Below are positions 292-6,653 of a DNA stretch of 64,000 nucleotides, one piece after another. The position numbers were made by a program, and so were the translations under genes. How positions within the stretch are numbered: the first letter of the stretch is position 1; each line of letters begins with the position of its first letter. The notes under the pieces are model-generated. The model searched no databases and was not told the DNA's origin. It worked only from the letters and a program-made list of their open reading frames with translations. The stretch covers positions 29,000 through 92,999 of the forward strand of contig CAWIMJ010000013.1 in NCBI GenBank assembly GCA_963837175.1, given 5' to 3'. The stretch is from an uncultured Nitrososphaeraceae archaeon. Its GTDB lineage: Archaea; Thermoproteota; Nitrososphaeria; Nitrososphaerales; Nitrososphaeraceae.

Positions 292-1896
292 TTAACCTAT
301 GCCAATAGATGCAAATGCCAAGTGCTTGAATTTTGACCTGTCGAGCATTCCCCGACCATCGTAAAGTGGGATTCCACCAAGATCAGCAGGTGTCAAAGTT
401 CGATACTCTGGATGATCTGCAATAAGCATTATTAAATCTGTACCTTGTATAGCTTCATTTAGATTTGATGTCAGAATAATATTATTCTGTTTTCCTGATA
501 AAGCAGGATCATTAATTACCAAAGGATCATGGACACGAATCTCTTTTACTTTCATCCGTTTCTGAAATTCATCAATGACCTTATAAGTAGGTGATGAACG
601 TGTATCTGAAACTCCCCCTCTAAAGGCAAGACCAAGTAAAGTGATAATAACTTCATCCATCCCCTTATTTACAAAACTTCTTTTTTTCAACTGTTCTCTT
701 CCATGCTTTTTGATATTGTTCTTTTCTTCTTTTCCTTCTTCTAGTAATTCTATGGCCTGTTCTACACAATAAGCAGCCATAGAATCGTTGATATTTCTGC
801 TCATGCGAGTAATACTACAATCGATCTTCATCCTATCTGCAGTATGAAGTATAAATTGGGGATAAATAGGTATACATGCACCGCCAACACCTACACCTGG
901 TTTATGGATATGGCAGAATGGTTGGGAGTTTGCCGCGTTCCTTGCTTCCCAAAAATCAACACCTACTTTTTCACAGAATTTTGCAAGTTCATTTGCAAGA
1001 GCAATATTTACATCCCGATATACTCCTTCAAGCAGCTTTTCGGTTTCAGCAGTTCTTATACTACTCATTGCTATTACACCTTTCTTAAATATTATAGAGT
1101 ATATCCTGACCCCTATATTGATACTTCTAACACCAGTTCCTGAGACTATTGCTGGATATCTCTGCTCGATATCTTCTATCGCCCTTCCTTCATAGATTCG
1201 TTCCGGATTGTATATCATGTAAAAGTCTGTTTCGGCTTTAAAACCACTTTCTTTCTCTAGAATTGGTAATACGATCTCTTCAGTTGTTCCCGGAGGAACA
1301 CTAGGATTTAGAGCTACAACATCAAACTTTTTCAATCCTTTTCCAATTGATGTTGCTACATCCTTTATCGCTGTCAAATCCGCTGATCCATTTGCAGCTA
1401 ACACTGGTACGCAAATCATTTTAAAATACGAATCTAAAGATGCTTTTACTAAGTCTTCATATATCTTGAAACGATTGTCCTCTATACCCTTTGTAAATGC
1501 CTCATTTACCCCTGGTTCTAGTTGGAGATGCGTCTTTCCTATTCTTGCATTTTTTAATACCTTTGAAGATTTATCGACTCCTATAACATGTGCTCCTCGT
1601 CGAAGCCATACAGAAGCTAGTGGAGCACCAATATGTCCTAAACCATAAACTGCTATTTTAAAGGCACCAGATTTTATTTTCTTTTCGATATCTTTTGGGC
1701 TGTATCCATATTCATAACCATAATTGTTGTTATGGTTATTGTTATTGACATCACTACTGCTTCTGGCACTATTGTTATTAACAATAATATTATTGGTATG
1801 ATCACCAGTTTTATTGATATCAGAGTTAGTAGTGGTAATATTAAAAGTAGTATTAGAAGAATATAGAGTTGGTTTCATACGACTTTTAGTTTTCAT
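292..1896 (-). CDS. Nucleotide-sugar dehydrogenase (UDP-GlcNAc/ManNAc 6-dehydrogenase, WbpA/WecC family)
   Basis: Rossmann GLGHIG, PER motif, catalytic GGACIP, C-terminal GLAFR..DTRSSP. Asn/Thr-rich N-terminal extension, so the true start is uncertain. Confidence 0.9.
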   Translation of the reverse strand: MKTKSRMKPTLYSSNTTFNITTTNSDINKTGDHTNNIIVNNNSARSSSDVNNNNHNNNYGYEYGYSPKDIEKKIKSGAFKIAVYGLGHIGAPLASVWLRRGAHVIGVDKSSKVLKNARIGKTHLQLEPGVNEAFTKGIEDNRFKIYEDLVKASLDSYFKMICVPVLAANGSADLTAIKDVATSIGKGLKKFDVVALNPSVPPGTTEEIVLPILEKESGFKAETDFYMIYNPERIYEGRAIEDIEQRYPAIVSGTGVRSINIGVRIYSIIFKKGVIAMSSIRTAETEKLLEGVYRDVNIALANELAKFCEKVGVDFWEARNAANSQPFCHIHKPGVGVGGACIPIYPQFILHTADRMKIDCSITRMSRNINDSMAAYCVEQAIELLEEGKEEKNNIKKHGREQLKKRSFVNKGMDEVIITLLGLAFRGGVSDTRSSPTYKVIDEFQKRMKVKEIRVHDPLVINDPALSGKQNNIILTSNLNEAIQGTDLIMLIADHPEYRTLTPADLGGIPLYDGRGMLDRSKFKHLAFASIGIG

Positions 1897-2420
1897 AAGA
1901 TGTATTTTATTATTATATTTATATTATATATCATGCGCTTGAACGTTGTTCTTTTATTTATTGCATGTAAATGAGATTTGAATTATCTTTATATATTATA
2001 CTCTTTCCCAATTGGAATTATATTATGCCTCAATAAGCTGAATAAGACTAATAGATAATATAATTACATTATAGCTAATGCAATCGGCAATAATTGTTCA
2101 TATTAGATATCATCTTATTATCTAGTGTTTATAGTAACGATCTTTTAAGATGTTACATTTCTTTGCAATAGGCAATAATATAGTTATTCTTTTGTAACTG
2201 AGGATAGTAATATACAAGTTTATGGTTTGTTCAGAGCAGCCTAATAAGTGAAGTTGCATAAGAAAAGGATATGTACTTTCAACCACATCATAGTTTATGG
2301 ATTAATTTTATGTGAGTAATATATATCTGTTCTAAAATTATGTTGATAAGTATTATATAATAAAATAATATATATAAATGAAGTTAAGGTTATTATACTC
2401 TTCTTACAAATTGATTTAAC

Positions 2421-2436
2421 AAAAAAGACTAAATAT
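2421..2436 (+). promoter_or_regulatory. Possible archaeal BRE/TATA promoter for the candidate RNA
   Basis: AAAAAAGACTAAATAT lies about 20-30 nt upstream of the first paired base (2456). The AT-rich background makes this weak. Confidence 0.35.
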
Positions 2437-2455
2437 CCTCCATACACATAAATAT

Positions 2456-2693
2456 TGTTCGATTAGCCGAAAGAGAAGAATGATACATCATATAGGTCTA
2501 GGTTGCAAGTAAAGGCTTGCAACTCCCACGGGAATGATGATATGTCGTCTTAGGCTAGTAGGTTAACCTGTATTCTTAAATGATGCAGGGGAGTCCAAGT
2601 CTAAGTTGATAAGAGTATACCACAGGGCTGCTTTGGAACTTATCGTAGTAGTCTTGCAGGGAAAACTACATGTCTTCGAATGCTAGTCGAACA
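2456..2693 (+). ncRNA. Candidate structured non-coding RNA of unknown family
   Basis: Closing helix TGTTCGATTAGC (2456-2467) / GCTAGTCGAACA (2682-2693), several nested hairpins with G-U pairs, visibly GC-richer than its flanks, followed by a T-rich tract. Confidence 0.55.
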
Positions 2694-2959
2694 TTACTTT
2701 TCTTATACTTATTCAATATATCATTACGCCTTAGTACAAAGGATGAGTTTTTGCTGATAGTTTATCCTTCCTCTCCTTTTGTTTTCTGGGTTGTGCCTAT
2801 AAACTATTCATTGTATTATTATTTTATTATTTTATTATTTTTCGTTAATATTGCAAAATCGTATTAATTATAATACCGAAGTAATTACATTACTGTATAT
2901 TATTACATTTTATTTCCTGTGCGTTTTCCTTTTTATCTGTAGTTGGAATGCCTGTTTTG

Positions 2960-3190
2960 TTAGGTTATTAAGGCGGCACCAAACTTGCGATACAGAGTTT
3001 TTCCTTCCCTTGTAACTAAAAAAATTCTATTCGGTGGAATAATTTCAAAATTCTCCGAAAGCTTTAAGAATTCTGGCAACGACACCTTAATGATAGAGTT
3101 AAATTCGCGATAGCTTACTGAATAGAGGCCAGCATTATCTGCATACAAAGCTTTACTAAAAATTTCTTTGAGTCGACCTTTCCGCGTCAT
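2960..3190 (-). CDS. DUF504 / MJ1316-like small protein (predicted RNA-end recognition domain)
   Basis: 76 aa with Y-x-V-x-Y-R and IPxxRI..V...G..LY.K, characteristic of DUF504. Confidence 0.7.
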   Translation of the reverse strand: MTRKGRLKEIFSKALYADNAGLYSVSYREFNSIIKVSLPEFLKLSENFEIIPPNRIFLVTREGKTLYRKFGAALIT

Positions 3191-3923
3191 GTTTTAAATT
3201 TTATTATCGTTTCTTCCATTGCGAATGTTGTCGACATTATCTTAATTATAATATTAGTATATAGGTTCATAACATGTATTGACTTGACATAATATATAAA
3301 ATTTCATAGAGGGCGCATAAAATCTTGTATATGAAGTATGATAGTATATTTAAAAACAACTTTTTTTCTACTGCTCATGCCAATACCCAATGAGATATCG
3401 AATCCAAAAACACTTATGTATTGGCAAACCTAAATGGAAGGCATATGTTAGATTTGGTATACTTACGCTTCTGATGGATAACTATCAGATATGTAAATTA
3501 TATGAAACAAAATCAATCTACTTCTTCATAGTTTTTCTCTGTATCTATAGGTAAGGTAAACTAATTACACAATAGATTAACATATGGTTATGATCTCCCC
3601 ACTGTGTAGTAGAGAAATGAAATGATTAGATATACTATTTTTCGTTTCAAAGCTTGGTAATCTGAATTGGCTACCTTGAATAACCTGGCCTATATCTTAT
3701 ATTGCCGTTGTCATTATGCTAGCATAAAACCATTTTATAGGTATGGCAGACAATCATAGACTTTATATCTGTTGGTCATTCTATCCCAGGAATTAGTATT
3801 ATATACTAGAAATGATATCATATTAATGATTTAGTAATACTTTTAGTACTGCTTAATAATAAAATATTATATATAGTATGTAGAGCTAGCTTTTTAAACT
3901 AAAATCTTCCAATAAAGAAAGGG

Positions 3924-6653
3924 ATGGCAGGAGTAACCGAGTTTAATGACTCGAAAGAGAACTTAATCATGAATATTAAAAAAAGAGACGGCAGAGTTGT
4001 TAGTTTTACGCATTCTAAGATATCAAATGCAATTTACAAAGCGCTTGTAGTGACTGGTAAGCCAGATTATCCATTAGCAGAAAGGTTGGCAAATAACGTG
4101 GTACAGAAAATGGTTCAGAGTGGTTACGGATTGAGTGGAAAAGTTGCAATCGCAAGTGTTGAAGATGTACAAGATATGGTAGAGTCTATCCTCATCGAAC
4201 AAGGATTGTCTGAAACGGCTAAGGCATACATCTTGTATAGGCATGAGAGGCGCAAAGTTAGAGATGAGAAGATGAGAGTTCTAAACAAGAAGGTGCTTGA
4301 TGAAGTTGACAAGGTATTTGATATTAATTCCCTTAGAGTTTTAGCTGCACGTTATTTGTTACGAGATAACAACGGCGAGATTATAGAAGGTCCAAAACAG
4401 ATGTTTGAAAGAGTAGCAATTCTGGTTGCACTTGCGGATATATTGCATGATTCTCAATTGTTCAATTTAGCAGGTGGACATAACCAAAATATCGAAGAAG
4501 CAGAGAAATATTATGCGAAAATGGATGACTTTGATCTAAAATTAAAGATAGGAGATTACTATCTGAACAAATATCACTTTGAATGTCTTATTCGACACTA
4601 TGTGTATCTAGCAAAGATGGGTTGTATGAAAGTTGGCTTTAAGGAACTACTTCGAATGATGGCTGAAAGCAAGTTAAGCGTATACGAAGAGAGAATCAAA
4701 GAATACTATAATTTAATGGTATCAAGAGATTTTCTACCGAATACACCAACATTGATGAATGCAGGTGCAAGGCTTGGTCAATTGTCAGCTTGTTTTGTTC
4801 TTGATATGTCAGACGACATGTATAAGATCATGCAATCATCAACTGATGCAGCCATGATTTTCAAATCAGGTGGAGGTGTTGGAATAAATTATTCTGACCT
4901 AAGACCAGAAGGAGATATCGTTGCCTCTACATCTGGCGTTGCATCAGGCCCAACCTCTTTTATGAGAATCATTGATACTATAACCGATGTAGTAAAACAA
5001 GGCGGAAAGAGGCGTGGCGCAAATATGGGTATATTAGAGGCATGGCATCCAGATATTGAAAAGTTTGTGACGGCCAAGACAAAACCTGGCGTATTCGAGA
5101 ACTTTAATGTCAGTGTTGGGGTCTGGGAAGATTTTTGGAAGTCTCTTGTAAATAAGGATAACCACAAGTATACATTACGTAATCCGAGAACTCATGAGCC
5201 TATAAAGCAGATCGATTCCTATCAATTAATGGATCTGATAGCATTTAGCGCATGGAAAAGTGCGGAACCAGGTGTTATCTTCTTTGATAATATTAACAAA
5301 TACAATCCATGTATAAATGCAAAGGGCGGACCTTTGCGTGCAACAAACCCCTGCGGTGAACAATCGTTATATCCTTATGAATCATGTAATCTAGGTTCGA
5401 TAAATCTTGCAAATTTTGTAAAGCGCAAGGCAGATGGAATGTTTGAATTTGATTGGCAGAAATATGAGCAGGCAATAAGGGTGTCATCCAGATTCTTAGA
5501 TAATATTATAGATATGAATAAGTATCCAGTGGAAGAAATTGATATCAATACAAAACTGACAAGAAGAATAGGCCTTGGTATAATGGGTATCGCTGACTTG
5601 CTATTCCTACTTAGAATTCCATATGATTCAAATGATGGCTATGAATTCATGTACAAACTGGCAGAAGCAGTATCATACTATAGTATGGAAGAAAGTGTTG
5701 CTATTGCAAAGGTAAGAGGACCATTTCCCTTATTCAAAGAGACAGATTATGTAAAGGGTAAGATACCTATCTCAGGTTATTATGAGTTACCAACAGAAAC
5801 ACATGCATACAATTGGGATTCCTTAATCAAAAAAATTCAAAAACATGGAATACGAAACTCTTGGACATCTACTATTGCTCCCACCGGTACATTATCTATG
5901 ATTGCAGATACTTCAAATGGTGTTGAACCGATGTTTGCGTTAGTTTTCGAGAAACGCGTGACAGTTGGTAGGTTCTTCTATACTAATAGGATTTTTGAAA
6001 ATGTGTTGAAGGAAAACGGCCTTTACACTGATGAAATACTTGCAAAAGTTGCGAATAATTATGGTTCAGTTCGTGGTTTGTCTGAAATTCCAGAATGGAT
6101 TCAGAAAACGTTTGTTACTGCAATAGATATACACTGGACTGATCATATAATGGCGCAGGCCGTATGGCAGAAATGGATTGGGAATGCCATTGCAAAAACA
6201 ATCAATATGCCAGGAGACGTCACTGCAGAAGATGTAAAGTATGCATATCTACTGTCACATGAACTTGGATTAAAAGGAGTTACAGTATACAGAGATGGCT
6301 CACGACATGAACAAGTTCTCCATATCACTGGTAATGAAACAAAGGAAAAGAAATTCATTACAAGGCCAAGCAAATATGCCGTAGACTATATTCGTGCAAA
6401 CGTTAAAGAATTATATGTCAGAGAACAAATAGAAAAAATCTTTGAACAAACCAAGATCGAAAATGAAGAAGAAATACCAACAGAAACAATTTCAACATCC
6501 ATACTACTGGATACGCCTACCAAGACAACACACACACCCTTGCTGGAATCAAATGAGGATAATACCTGTCCATCATGCAAAGCGAGATTAATAATCACTG
6601 AAGGTTGCAATTTGTGTATAGAATGCGGCTTTAGTAGCTGCATTTCAGGCTGA
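3924..6653 (+). CDS. nrdJ: Adenosylcobalamin-dependent (class II) ribonucleotide reductase with N-terminal ATP cone
   Basis: IKKRDG ATP cone, PNTPTLMNAG..QLSACF, TNPCGEQ..CNLGS, TIAPTGT, VYRDGS, C-terminal CPSC/CIEC. Confidence 0.95.
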   Translation: MAGVTEFNDSKENLIMNIKKRDGRVVSFTHSKISNAIYKALVVTGKPDYPLAERLANNVVQKMVQSGYGLSGKVAIASVEDVQDMVESILIEQGLSETAKAYILYRHERRKVRDEKMRVLNKKVLDEVDKVFDINSLRVLAARYLLRDNNGEIIEGPKQMFERVAILVALADILHDSQLFNLAGGHNQNIEEAEKYYAKMDDFDLKLKIGDYYLNKYHFECLIRHYVYLAKMGCMKVGFKELLRMMAESKLSVYEERIKEYYNLMVSRDFLPNTPTLMNAGARLGQLSACFVLDMSDDMYKIMQSSTDAAMIFKSGGGVGINYSDLRPEGDIVASTSGVASGPTSFMRIIDTITDVVKQGGKRRGANMGILEAWHPDIEKFVTAKTKPGVFENFNVSVGVWEDFWKSLVNKDNHKYTLRNPRTHEPIKQIDSYQLMDLIAFSAWKSAEPGVIFFDNINKYNPCINAKGGPLRATNPCGEQSLYPYESCNLGSINLANFVKRKADGMFEFDWQKYEQAIRVSSRFLDNIIDMNKYPVEEIDINTKLTRRIGLGIMGIADLLFLLRIPYDSNDGYEFMYKLAEAVSYYSMEESVAIAKVRGPFPLFKETDYVKGKIPISGYYELPTETHAYNWDSLIKKIQKHGIRNSWTSTIAPTGTLSMIADTSNGVEPMFALVFEKRVTVGRFFYTNRIFENVLKENGLYTDEILAKVANNYGSVRGLSEIPEWIQKTFVTAIDIHWTDHIMAQAVWQKWIGNAIAKTINMPGDVTAEDVKYAYLLSHELGLKGVTVYRDGSRHEQVLHITGNETKEKKFITRPSKYAVDYIRANVKELYVREQIEKIFEQTKIENEEEIPTETISTSILLDTPTKTTHTPLLESNEDNTCPSCKARLIITEGCNLCIECGFSSCISG

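Follow-up and report, generated by a model that had tools for sequence, protein, structure and literature searches.

Circular RNAs have been described from several archaeal systems. The accessible text of PMC4731332 describes a rearranged signal recognition particle (SRP) RNA gene in Thermoproteus whose product is circularised, and the accessible sections of PMC12918454 describe circular precursors of ribosomal RNA (pre-rRNAs) processed at bulge-helix-bulge (BHB) motifs together with circular 23S rRNA, the latter also in Nitrososphaeria. BHB circles derived from transfer RNA (tRNA) and rRNA introns and from an intron in the 5' untranslated region of HVO_1309 were detected by circular-RNA sequencing, and cutting by the recombinant enzyme was obtained in vitro (PMC7714728, in its accessible part). 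In Sulfolobus, the circles include C/D box RNAs, RNase P RNA and some RNAs of unknown function (PMC3326292, likewise in the accessible part). We analysed a stretch of 64,000 nucleotides (the window) from an uncultured archaeon of the family Nitrososphaeraceae (f1; the host genome, G000, comprises 3.8 Mb in 58 contigs) and found that the element at window positions 2456-2693 on the + strand belongs to a new RNA family that is widespread in this archaeal order. The family, one of soil ammonia-oxidising archaea, is previously undescribed; a circle excised at a BHB motif is all that is conserved of the product of its dedicated gene, and the element is very probably a functional circular non-coding RNA (ncRNA) processed in this manner. 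The initial annotation of the window had proposed a stand-alone structured ncRNA, possibly undescribed, and this interpretation is supported by the lack of any Rfam family match, the abundant compensatory changes among homologues, a folding energy far better than that of shuffled sequences and the presence of the RNA in metatranscriptomes. No description of this RNA was found in the full-text literature, including the accessible parts of PMC12918454, PMC5069720 and 10.64898/2026.10.21.760802, with subscription journals and supplements outside the scope of that search.

RNA joint, bulge-helix-bulge motif and transcription signals

Part of the region 2380-2780 is contained in 22 RNA-labelled runs, and the evidence below comes from the best four of these (X1-X4, from four studies of soil and rhizosphere metatranscriptomes); runs X5-X24, with small shares of the region, do not enter into it. 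We found an RNA joint running from 2680 to 2474, without positional ambiguity, in two contigs of X1 and in X2, and the same joint register was present for a paralogue of the C9/C34 type in X1, X3 and X4. In particular, the first record of X1 is 236 nt long and shows no mismatch; it reads through 2502-2680 and then 2474-2530, which corresponds to a 207-nt circle plus an assembler overlap. The joint sits after the second base of both bulges of the BHB motif (A2472 G2473/A2474 and A2679 A2680/U2681), which is where the archaeal splicing endonuclease cuts. As the joint lies exactly inside both 3-nt bulges, the product is a circle, and the mature RNA corresponds to 2474-2680 (+), 207 nt, with A2680 joined to A2474. 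No tandem copy of the RNA gene was present in the host genome. The contigs of X1-X3, from three studies, covered 2474-2680 and contained nothing of 2380-2463 or 2688-2780, and these uncovered flanks are only a weak hint. The word depth of the contigs reached 324 (for the paralogue in X1), a value that is no measure of expression. The circle length of 207 nt is divisible by 3, which does not hold for the paralogue circle of 197 nt.

The 5' half of the BHB motif is located at 2468-2474 (+) and consists of the central-helix strand CGAA (2468-2471) and the bulge AGA (2472-2474), with the cut at 2473/2474; the 3' half at 2675-2681 (+) consists of the strand UUCG (2675-2678) and the bulge AAU (2679-2681), with the cut at 2680/2681. 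The two 3-nt bulges are placed on opposite strands around the 4-bp helix C2468-A2471/U2675-G2678. In the window copy, this core is flanked by the 12-bp helix P1 on the outside and by a 2-bp inner helix (G2475-C2674, A2476-U2673), so that it corresponds to the hBHBh' definition, with flanking helices on both sides. Homologous sequences were aligned to a covariance model built from 23 sequences (R1), which gave 95 matches, 93 of them distinct. In the aligned register, 73 of the 93 distinct members combine a 4-bp central helix with 3/3 bulges; the central helix is 92.6% paired, and its pair G14-C222 is GC in 65 and AU in 16 sequences. Additionally, the central helix is compensated between families, as CGAA/UUCG, CAGG/CCUG, CGGG/CCCG and CGAG/CUCG. 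P1 (2456-2467/2682-2693, +) is 88.4% paired, with compensatory changes in 11 of 11 counted pairs. The 12-bp end pairing with one G-U pair and its CGAA/UUCG extension, both recognised in the initial annotation, were thus found in the sequence and again in the comparison; beyond that annotation, the terminal stem is a BHB processing signal that is removed from the mature RNA.

Ligation of A2680 to A2474 makes a junction hairpin (Jh, +) with the sequence UCUUC-GAAA-GAAGA, in which GAAGA (2475-2479) pairs with UCUUC (2673-2677) and the GAAA loop, G2678 A2679 A2680 A2474, spans the joint. The stem of Jh covaries among the aligned sequences: 20-222 is GC in 72 and GU in 14, 22-220 is AU in 63 and GU in 21, 23-219 is GC in 77, and 24-218 is AU in 49, GC in 16 and GU in 12. 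Of the 85 f1 sequences that have 3/3 bulges, 46 carry GAGA and 28 carry GAAA at the joint (74 of 85), and the joint loop is a GNRA loop (GAGA or GAAA) in 22 of 23 sequences from other families. The host genome has candidate genes for both steps of processing: two with an EndA domain (PF01974; C41:35700-35930, 94.9 bits, and C50:224579-224833, 76.1 bits) and one for RtcB (PF01139; C37:15341-16651, 578.8 bits).

The TATA-like element and the T-rich tract that had been noticed on the two sides of the element both recur as family features. Upstream, a sequence resembling a B recognition element (BRE) and TATA box occupies 2421-2436 (+), comprising the A-rich AAAAAAG at 2421-2427 and TAAATAT at 2430-2436, with its centre approximately 23-26 nt before the start of P1. 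Across 86 unique upstream flanks, positions -35 to -30 are 47-64% A and positions -29 to -26 are 40-62% T, and boxes of the TTTATAT type occur at a matching distance in f4, f6, f9, f10 and f21 (f4, f6 and so forth denote families other than f1). Downstream, the T-rich tail TTACTTTTCTT at 2694-2704 (+) is a likely oligo-T terminator. Positions +2 to +13 past P1 are 40-71% T in the 86 flanks, and a run of at least four T occurs within 30 nt in 40 of the 86, compared with 18 of 86 in an upstream control window; the corresponding figure for runs of at least four A is 5 of 86.

A pathway can be proposed from these features. Transcription would start near 2456 behind the BRE/TATA-like promoter and end in the T-rich tract past 2693, and the transcript ends would pair into the 12-bp helix, which together with CGAA/UUCG and the two 3-nt bulges would form a canonical archaeal BHB. 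The tRNA-splicing endonuclease would then cut at both sites, RtcB would join the ends of the excised piece into the 207-nt circle, and the ligation would create the GAAA tetraloop on a new 5-bp hairpin. Sequence, comparison and RNA contigs together give this route of biogenesis good support.

Conserved fold, distribution and genomic setting

The minimum free energy of 2456-2693 (+) was -80.4 kcal/mol, compared with -57.9 +/- 4.2 kcal/mol for 200 dinucleotide shuffles (z -5.35), and 0/200 shuffles were as good. The minus strand gave z -2.73, and the difference favours the + strand, as had been annotated. For the 93 distinct sequences, 84.2% of the cells of the full structure were paired compared with 72.0 +/- 0.3% in shuffles, and compensatory changes were present in 70 of 78 base pairs; 0/500 shuffles reached any of five measures, and slid controls were 33-45% paired.

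The inner helices, all on the + strand, are conserved to different degrees. P2 (2486-2491/2534-2539) is 74-83% paired, with compensatory changes in 5 of 6 pairs, and carries the hairpin P3 (2501-2510/2515-2524; 91.5%, 8 of 10 pairs), whose conserved loop region is GUAAAGGC. P4 (2542-2556/2598-2612) measures 15 bp, and its 12 innermost pairs are 90.4% paired and compensated in 12 of 12 cases. The variable hairpin P5 (2567-2573/2583-2589) was seen in the window copy; its aligned pairs reach 24-60%, poor counts that result from the variation of its length and sequence among homologues. The 3' arm (2613-2669) is composed of P7, an AAA/AAA internal loop, P7b and P6 with a 16-nt loop. P7 (2613-2616/2665-2669, with A2668 bulged) is 91.9% paired, P7b (2620-2621/2660-2661) is 85.5% paired, and P6 (2625-2631/2648-2654) is 92.1% paired, with compensatory changes in 6 of 7 pairs. 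The window copy has two compensated changes in P7, where A-U and U-A take the place of the G-C and C-G of most members, and the junction strands and the AAA/AAA internal loop of P7 are nearly invariant.

A covariation scan over all column pairs also uncovered a pseudoknot whose two parts, PK1 and PK2, are both absent from the model behind the alignment. PK1 (+) connects the P4 arm, at its internal loop, with the P6 loop by pairing GUAGGU at 2558-2563 to ACUUAU at 2638-2643 (94.7% paired, compensatory changes in 6 of 6 pairs). PK2 (+) continues PK1 on the P6 loop and pairs UCC (2594-2596) with GGA (2635-2637); it is 90.3% paired, with CG in 50 and AU in 19 sequences at one pair and CG in 57 and UA in 14 at another. 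The circle is accordingly a four-way junction, with the junction hairpin, P2-P3, P4-P5 and P7-P6 as its arms, and a 9-bp pseudoknot that ties the P6 loop to the P4 arm at its internal loop locks this junction.

Some of the internal helices drawn in the initial annotation agree with this fold. The hairpin 2501-2510/2515-2524 with its AAAG loop and the enclosed hairpin 2567-2573/2583-2589 were both recovered, and CUUAGGCU/AGUCUAAG proved to be part of the 15-bp helix P4. A helix 2476-2491/2534-2551 stood in its core (2486-2491/2534-2539). Three further pairings, GATAAG/CTTATC, GTAGT/ACTAC and ATTAGCC/GGCTAGT, had to be abandoned: they were 60.8% paired in the 93 homologues compared with 61.4% in shuffles, and 437 of 500 shuffles did at least as well. 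Their bases belong to P4, a pseudoknot and P6/P7, all of which covary. Two alternative folds had been envisaged on the basis of ATTAGCC/GGCTAGT; this pairing being no better than shuffles, they receive no support. Likewise, the resemblance to group II intron domain III is unsupported, as no group II model of Rfam matched.

We found no known RNA family that accounts for the element. At the gathering score, Rfam 15 gave 0 matches across the whole window, and with lax filters and E <= 10 the region 2300-2850 matched just two small nucleolar RNA models at chance level (E 6.6 and 9.2); six distant homologues likewise gave 0 Rfam matches. RNase P RNA and SRP RNA were rejected because the canonical genes sit elsewhere in the host genome (C50:267429-267708, 174 bits, and C37:30136-30451, 110 bits, respectively), and inspection of the sequence by eye revealed none of the RNase P conserved regions CR-I to CR-V. 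A C/D box small RNA was also considered. The sequence AAUGAUGA at 2533-2540 (AUGAUGA at 2534-2540) is C-box-like, which explains a weak snoU31b match, yet it lies within the 3' strand of P2; no CUGA (D box) or kink-turn (K-turn) partner was seen near it, and inspection by eye showed no K-turn at the P2/P4 junction.

The host genome holds five copies of the element, namely, the window copy on C13 and copies on C9, C34, C23 and C35, the other four being about 73% identical or less to the window copy. The C23 and C35 copies have flanking genes in common; both score low (approximately 145 bits) and lie in a duplicated region at contig ends (C35:1-2200 and C23:8800-9545). In the alignment, both copies form just 3 of the 4 pairs of the central helix, and the bulges UUC and ACA would give a UACC loop rather than a GNRA loop. 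By eye, two short open reading frames (ORFs) adjoining the C35 copy (39-365 and 476-922, minus strand) resemble transposase fragments. R1 matched 65 of the 151 f1 genomes scanned, at 1-12 copies per genome, and 14 of the 18 f1 genera were positive; no match was found in the f1 genera g2 (0/21), g5 (0/21), g13 (0/21) and g6 (0/2). The names under which homologues of the neighbouring protein are recorded place f1 in Nitrososphaeraceae. These tallies take in the unpublished genomes G063 (g9) and G101 (g12), which the alignments leave out. No neighbouring ORF was common to the f1 copies beyond close-relative synteny.

With a wider model (R2), 46 of the 151 genomes scanned in the order gave full-length homologues, and the homologues reach at least 8 families beyond f1. 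By family, the positives were 6 of 23 in f1 (G000 not counted), 7 of 9 in f4, 2 of 2 in f6, 2 of 13 in f7, 10 of 11 in f9, 12 of 24 in f10, 5 of 10 in f12 and 1 of 2 in f18; none were found in f13 (0/23), f15 (0/15), f14 (0/4) and f19 (0/6). Among 150 genomes of the phylum, one match lay beyond the order (G302, 76.7 bits). A whole-genome scan of five genomes from among f13, f15 and f19, in which R2 had found no RNA, gave one match, the sole one in f13 (G276:C1:613970-614193, 25 bits); the five were chosen as holders of the gene for protein X, discussed below, and the match lies far from that gene in G276. This match suggests that the RNA may also occur in a strongly diverged form that the present models miss.

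Some features were restricted to parts of the family. At loci L094-L108 (genomes G108, G079, G081, G021, G064, G084, G093 and G146), copies of 41-98 bits have a degenerate BHB, insertions or truncations; good copies are present in the same genomes, and the low-scoring ones look like paralogues in decay. A repeat of approximately 490 nt with 72-85% identity was observed near several copies, about 30-530 nt downstream of the RNA at L133 and L139 and upstream at L129; it encodes an ORF of approximately 185-190 aa antisense to the RNA and belongs to one genus with 4-12 RNA copies per genome.

At its own locus, the RNA gene lies in a very AT-rich 2-kb spacer (1897-3923) bordered by a gene for uridine diphosphate (UDP)-glucose dehydrogenase (292-1896, -) and a ribonucleotide reductase gene (3924-6653, +). 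The spacer has a G+C content of 21-29% outside the RNA and approximately 42% inside it, and its ORFs are all short and without family matches (2960-3190, -, 76 aa; 2670-2867, +, 65 aa). A riboswitch or cis-regulatory leader is disfavoured, since the nearest + strand gene, that of the ribonucleotide reductase, is 1.2 kb off, the copies differ in neighbours and orientation, and the element has its own T-rich tail.

Protein X and the competing explanations

An ORF of 219-244 aa, here called X, recurs beside the RNA in distant homologues. All 26 loci fetched from outside f1 had X no more than 1.5 kb from the RNA, and of the 39 RNA-positive genomes outside f1, 30 had X within 1 kb of the RNA on a shared contig (f4, 7/7; f6, 2/2; f7, 2/2; f9, 9/10; f10, 10/12; f12, 0/5; f18, 0/1). 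Three arrangements were observed: X upstream on the same strand, X convergent with the RNA, and X downstream with a phosphoribosyltransferase gene in between. When the neighbourhoods were compared across five groups, X was the sole ORF common to all of them, at 15 of 15 loci. In f10 and one f1 genus, the gene after that of the RNA encodes a phosphoribosyltransferase domain (PF00156; L152:1741-2418, L158:2561-3220 and relatives), and an ORF resembling 3-hydroxyacyl-CoA dehydrogenase is common to f4 and the same f1 genus; both genes look like relics of an older block of genes that surrounded the RNA and X.

The same 151 genomes of the order were scanned for the RNA and for X. Where the RNA was found, X was found in 43 genomes and not found in 3, and where the RNA was not found, X was found in 34 and not found in 71; the 3 of 46 RNA-positive genomes without X are 88-91% complete. 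In f10, 10 genomes had both, 2 had the RNA alone and 12 had neither, and in f7, 2 genomes had both, 1 had X alone and 10 had neither. In f1, X occurs in 13 of 14 RNA-positive genera, and the genera without the RNA are also without X (0/21, 0/21, 0/21 and 0/2 for both), a tally that takes in the unpublished genomes G063, G101 and G122. Two X genes appear unusual: that at G023:C46:2431-3084 contains an in-frame TAG, and that at G222:C20:719509-721042, in two pieces with a TGA, is possibly broken. R2 gave no RNA match in two f4 genomes, of which G222 is one. The X copy of the host genome (C50:269898-270563, -; locus L155:3396-4064) lies approximately 2.2 kb from the RNase P RNA gene, on the contig that also carries the second EndA-domain gene, and this placement is probably a coincidence.

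X belongs to an uncharacterised protein family of approximately 4,000 database members and matched no family of Pfam or NCBIfam and no PDB sequence, even at E 10. The predicted model combines an N-terminal three-helix bundle with an alpha/beta core, and E53, D80, E93 and E95 are invariant. The weak Foldseek hits of the model (E >= 0.002) were nearly all PD-(D/E)xK nucleases, and the ESM Atlas returned only clusters of hypothetical proteins plus a 0.87 lead to PDDEXK_14. Upon superposition, residues 40-201 of the model resembled XisH-, AF1548- and YaeQ-like PD-(D/E)xK proteins (2okf, 1y88, 3dnx and 2ot9; VIA Z 6.7-8.2 over 101-134 residues), and the modelled order of helix with E, strand, strand with D, and strand with ExE is compatible with a PD-(D/E)xK nuclease core. 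In contrast to the XisH-, AF1548- and YaeQ-like proteins, X has the additional N-terminal bundle, a glutamate in place of the usual (D/E)xK lysine, and no sequence-level match. These comparisons point weakly to X as a PD-(D/E)xK-like protein of nuclease fold.

We consider it likely, taking all lines of evidence together, that the element is an independently transcribed circular ncRNA gene, the product of which would serve as a subunit or scaffold of a ribonucleoprotein (RNP) with X. A functional link between the RNA and X is, by itself, somewhat less certain and still the favoured view. The most likely guess for the function is an RNA-protein complex with X, in which the circle would be a stable RNA component. 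As a tentative extension, the circle and X might form an RNP enzyme new to science, found in ammonia-oxidising archaea and related lineages, either a PD-(D/E)xK nuclease that needs a dedicated circular, pseudoknotted RNA subunit or a catalytic RNA with X as its cofactor. On that extended reading, circularisation would be an obligatory assembly step because the GNRA hairpin closes the four-way junction.

Several observations weigh against the explanation of a circular RNA working with X. Concerning the motif, a strict de novo finder of the hBHBh' motif (outer helix of at least 3 bp, inner helix of at least 2 bp) passed only 37 of 93 f1 sequences, with 23 of 27 in other families and controls of 11/93 for reverse complements and 5/95 for shuffled ends; many f1 copies therefore carry a relaxed motif with a relaxed inner helix. 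The C9-type paralogue has such a relaxed inner helix and is nevertheless joined in the RNA contigs. A relaxed finder was unspecific, its controls being as high as the family, so that the counts rest on the aligned register and the strict finder. Some low-scoring copies look decayed. Concerning the transcripts, the metatranscriptome data are assembled contigs and not reads, from which ends, strand and level are not readable, and one X4 contig continues into the downstream flank (2529-2780); it could be a precursor, read-through or DNA. Concerning the fold of X, Foldseek gave no hit at E <= 0.001, one of five AlphaFold2 models was confident (predicted local distance difference test score of 87.1 for the best and 46-53 for the other four), and the superposition of the core on 3dnx, 2okf, 1y88, YaeQ and NucS was weak (VIA Z 6.0-8.2). 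The remaining points of this kind concern the linkage itself, in which related genomes are not independent counts.

These points belong to the strongest alternative, in which the RNA is real and circular, its link with X reflects inherited gene order, and it works alone, as a ribozyme or as a decoy for protein or RNA, or in another complex. Other neighbourhood ORFs are common to two or three groups or families only, which indicates that old synteny accounts for part of the linkage. X is not adjacent to the RNA in f12 or in most of f1, the host genome included, where no RNA copy was found beside X with the filters off. Moreover, the 34 genomes with X and no detected RNA fall mainly in f13, f15, f19 and f12, and no RNA adjoined X in 14 loci of f13, f15 and f19. 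The f1 genera without both may form one clade and thus reflect a single loss. On the other side, X alone is kept in all five groups, through three arrangements; f1, f7 and f10 show joint presence or absence with few exceptions; and the RNA without X is confined to the three incomplete genomes mentioned above. We therefore regard inherited gene order without a functional link as a possibility that is appreciably less likely than the linked reading.

It is improbable that the element is an orphan or mobile selfish element resembling a BHB intron, whose circle would be a by-product without cellular function. Such an origin would suit the 0-12 copies per genome, their frequent position at contig ends and the decayed copies, and the accessible parts of PMC7714728 and PMC3326292 show that archaeal rRNA and tRNA introns leave BHB motifs as stable circles. 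The flanks that would have to be exons are, however, unconserved and part of no gene, and each copy has its own promoter-like and T-rich signals. Outside f1, the element is single-copy in 36 of 39 RNA-positive genomes and beside X in most of them, and it contains no homing endonuclease or other ORF. In addition, paralogues within one genome share approximately 73% identity and have compensated helices, from which it follows that the fold has long been under purifying selection.

Still less likely is a permuted or rearranged form of a known RNA, or a circle that is an intermediate reopened elsewhere. The permuted SRP RNA of Thermoproteus is a precedent (PMC4731332, in its accessible text), and the contigs cannot separate a circle from a mixture of permuted linear forms. 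The searches with lax filters at E <= 10 nevertheless gave no partial match to a known RNA, the canonical RNase P and SRP RNAs are encoded elsewhere, and contigs bridge every position of the circle, so that no fixed break is seen. Permuted 23S rRNA is reportedly a further precedent. A miniature inverted-repeat transposable element (MITE) with merely stem-like terminal repeats can practically be dismissed: its 12-bp ends are inverted repeats and it is multi-copy and breaks assemblies in some genomes, but the inner helices and the pseudoknot covary, the copies are 67-90% identical and compensated, the family spans several archaeal families at 25-250 bits with the + strand favoured, the RNA product is excised and joined, and the window copy has no direct repeat at its borders and no transposase travels along.

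Relation to known circular RNAs

Ammonia-oxidising archaea account for a large part of nitrification in soil and ocean, and their ncRNAs are almost unexplored. The covariance model can be used for annotating these genomes, and the family of X gains a partner against which it can be tested. A circle with a nuclease-like candidate partner also offers a concrete system for asking what roles circular RNAs have in archaea.

The circularisation of the Thermoproteus SRP RNA is said to involve a BHB. As there, a stand-alone ncRNA gene gives a transcript that is processed and joined to a circle; in contrast to that case, in which circularisation restores a known RNA, the present RNA belongs to no known family, is not detectably permuted and coexists with a canonical SRP RNA. 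The processing stems of pre-rRNAs are similar: they too are long terminal helices that contain a BHB, and the piece excised by the splicing endonuclease is ligated into a circle. The differences from the pre-rRNA and 23S rRNA circles are that the present RNA is 207 nt long with its own promoter-like signal and that its ligation builds a conserved GNRA hairpin. Circular RNAs of Sulfolobus are likewise non-coding, and there abundant, in a related archaeal phylum; they are reportedly mostly not defined by a BHB, and we know of no Sulfolobus circle that is a conserved family of approximately 200 nt in which a four-way junction is combined with a pseudoknot. In outline, the RNA resembles RNase P and MRP RNA in its terminal helix, its junction of several helices and its long-range pseudoknot, and it differs from them in having no Rfam match. 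BHB introns are excised from functional flanks, whereas in the present family it is the excised circle that is conserved and structured, and the flanks are not conserved. The BHB circles known so far come from introns, from rRNA intermediates or from rearranged forms of known RNAs, and a dedicated gene for a new fold sets the present element apart from them.

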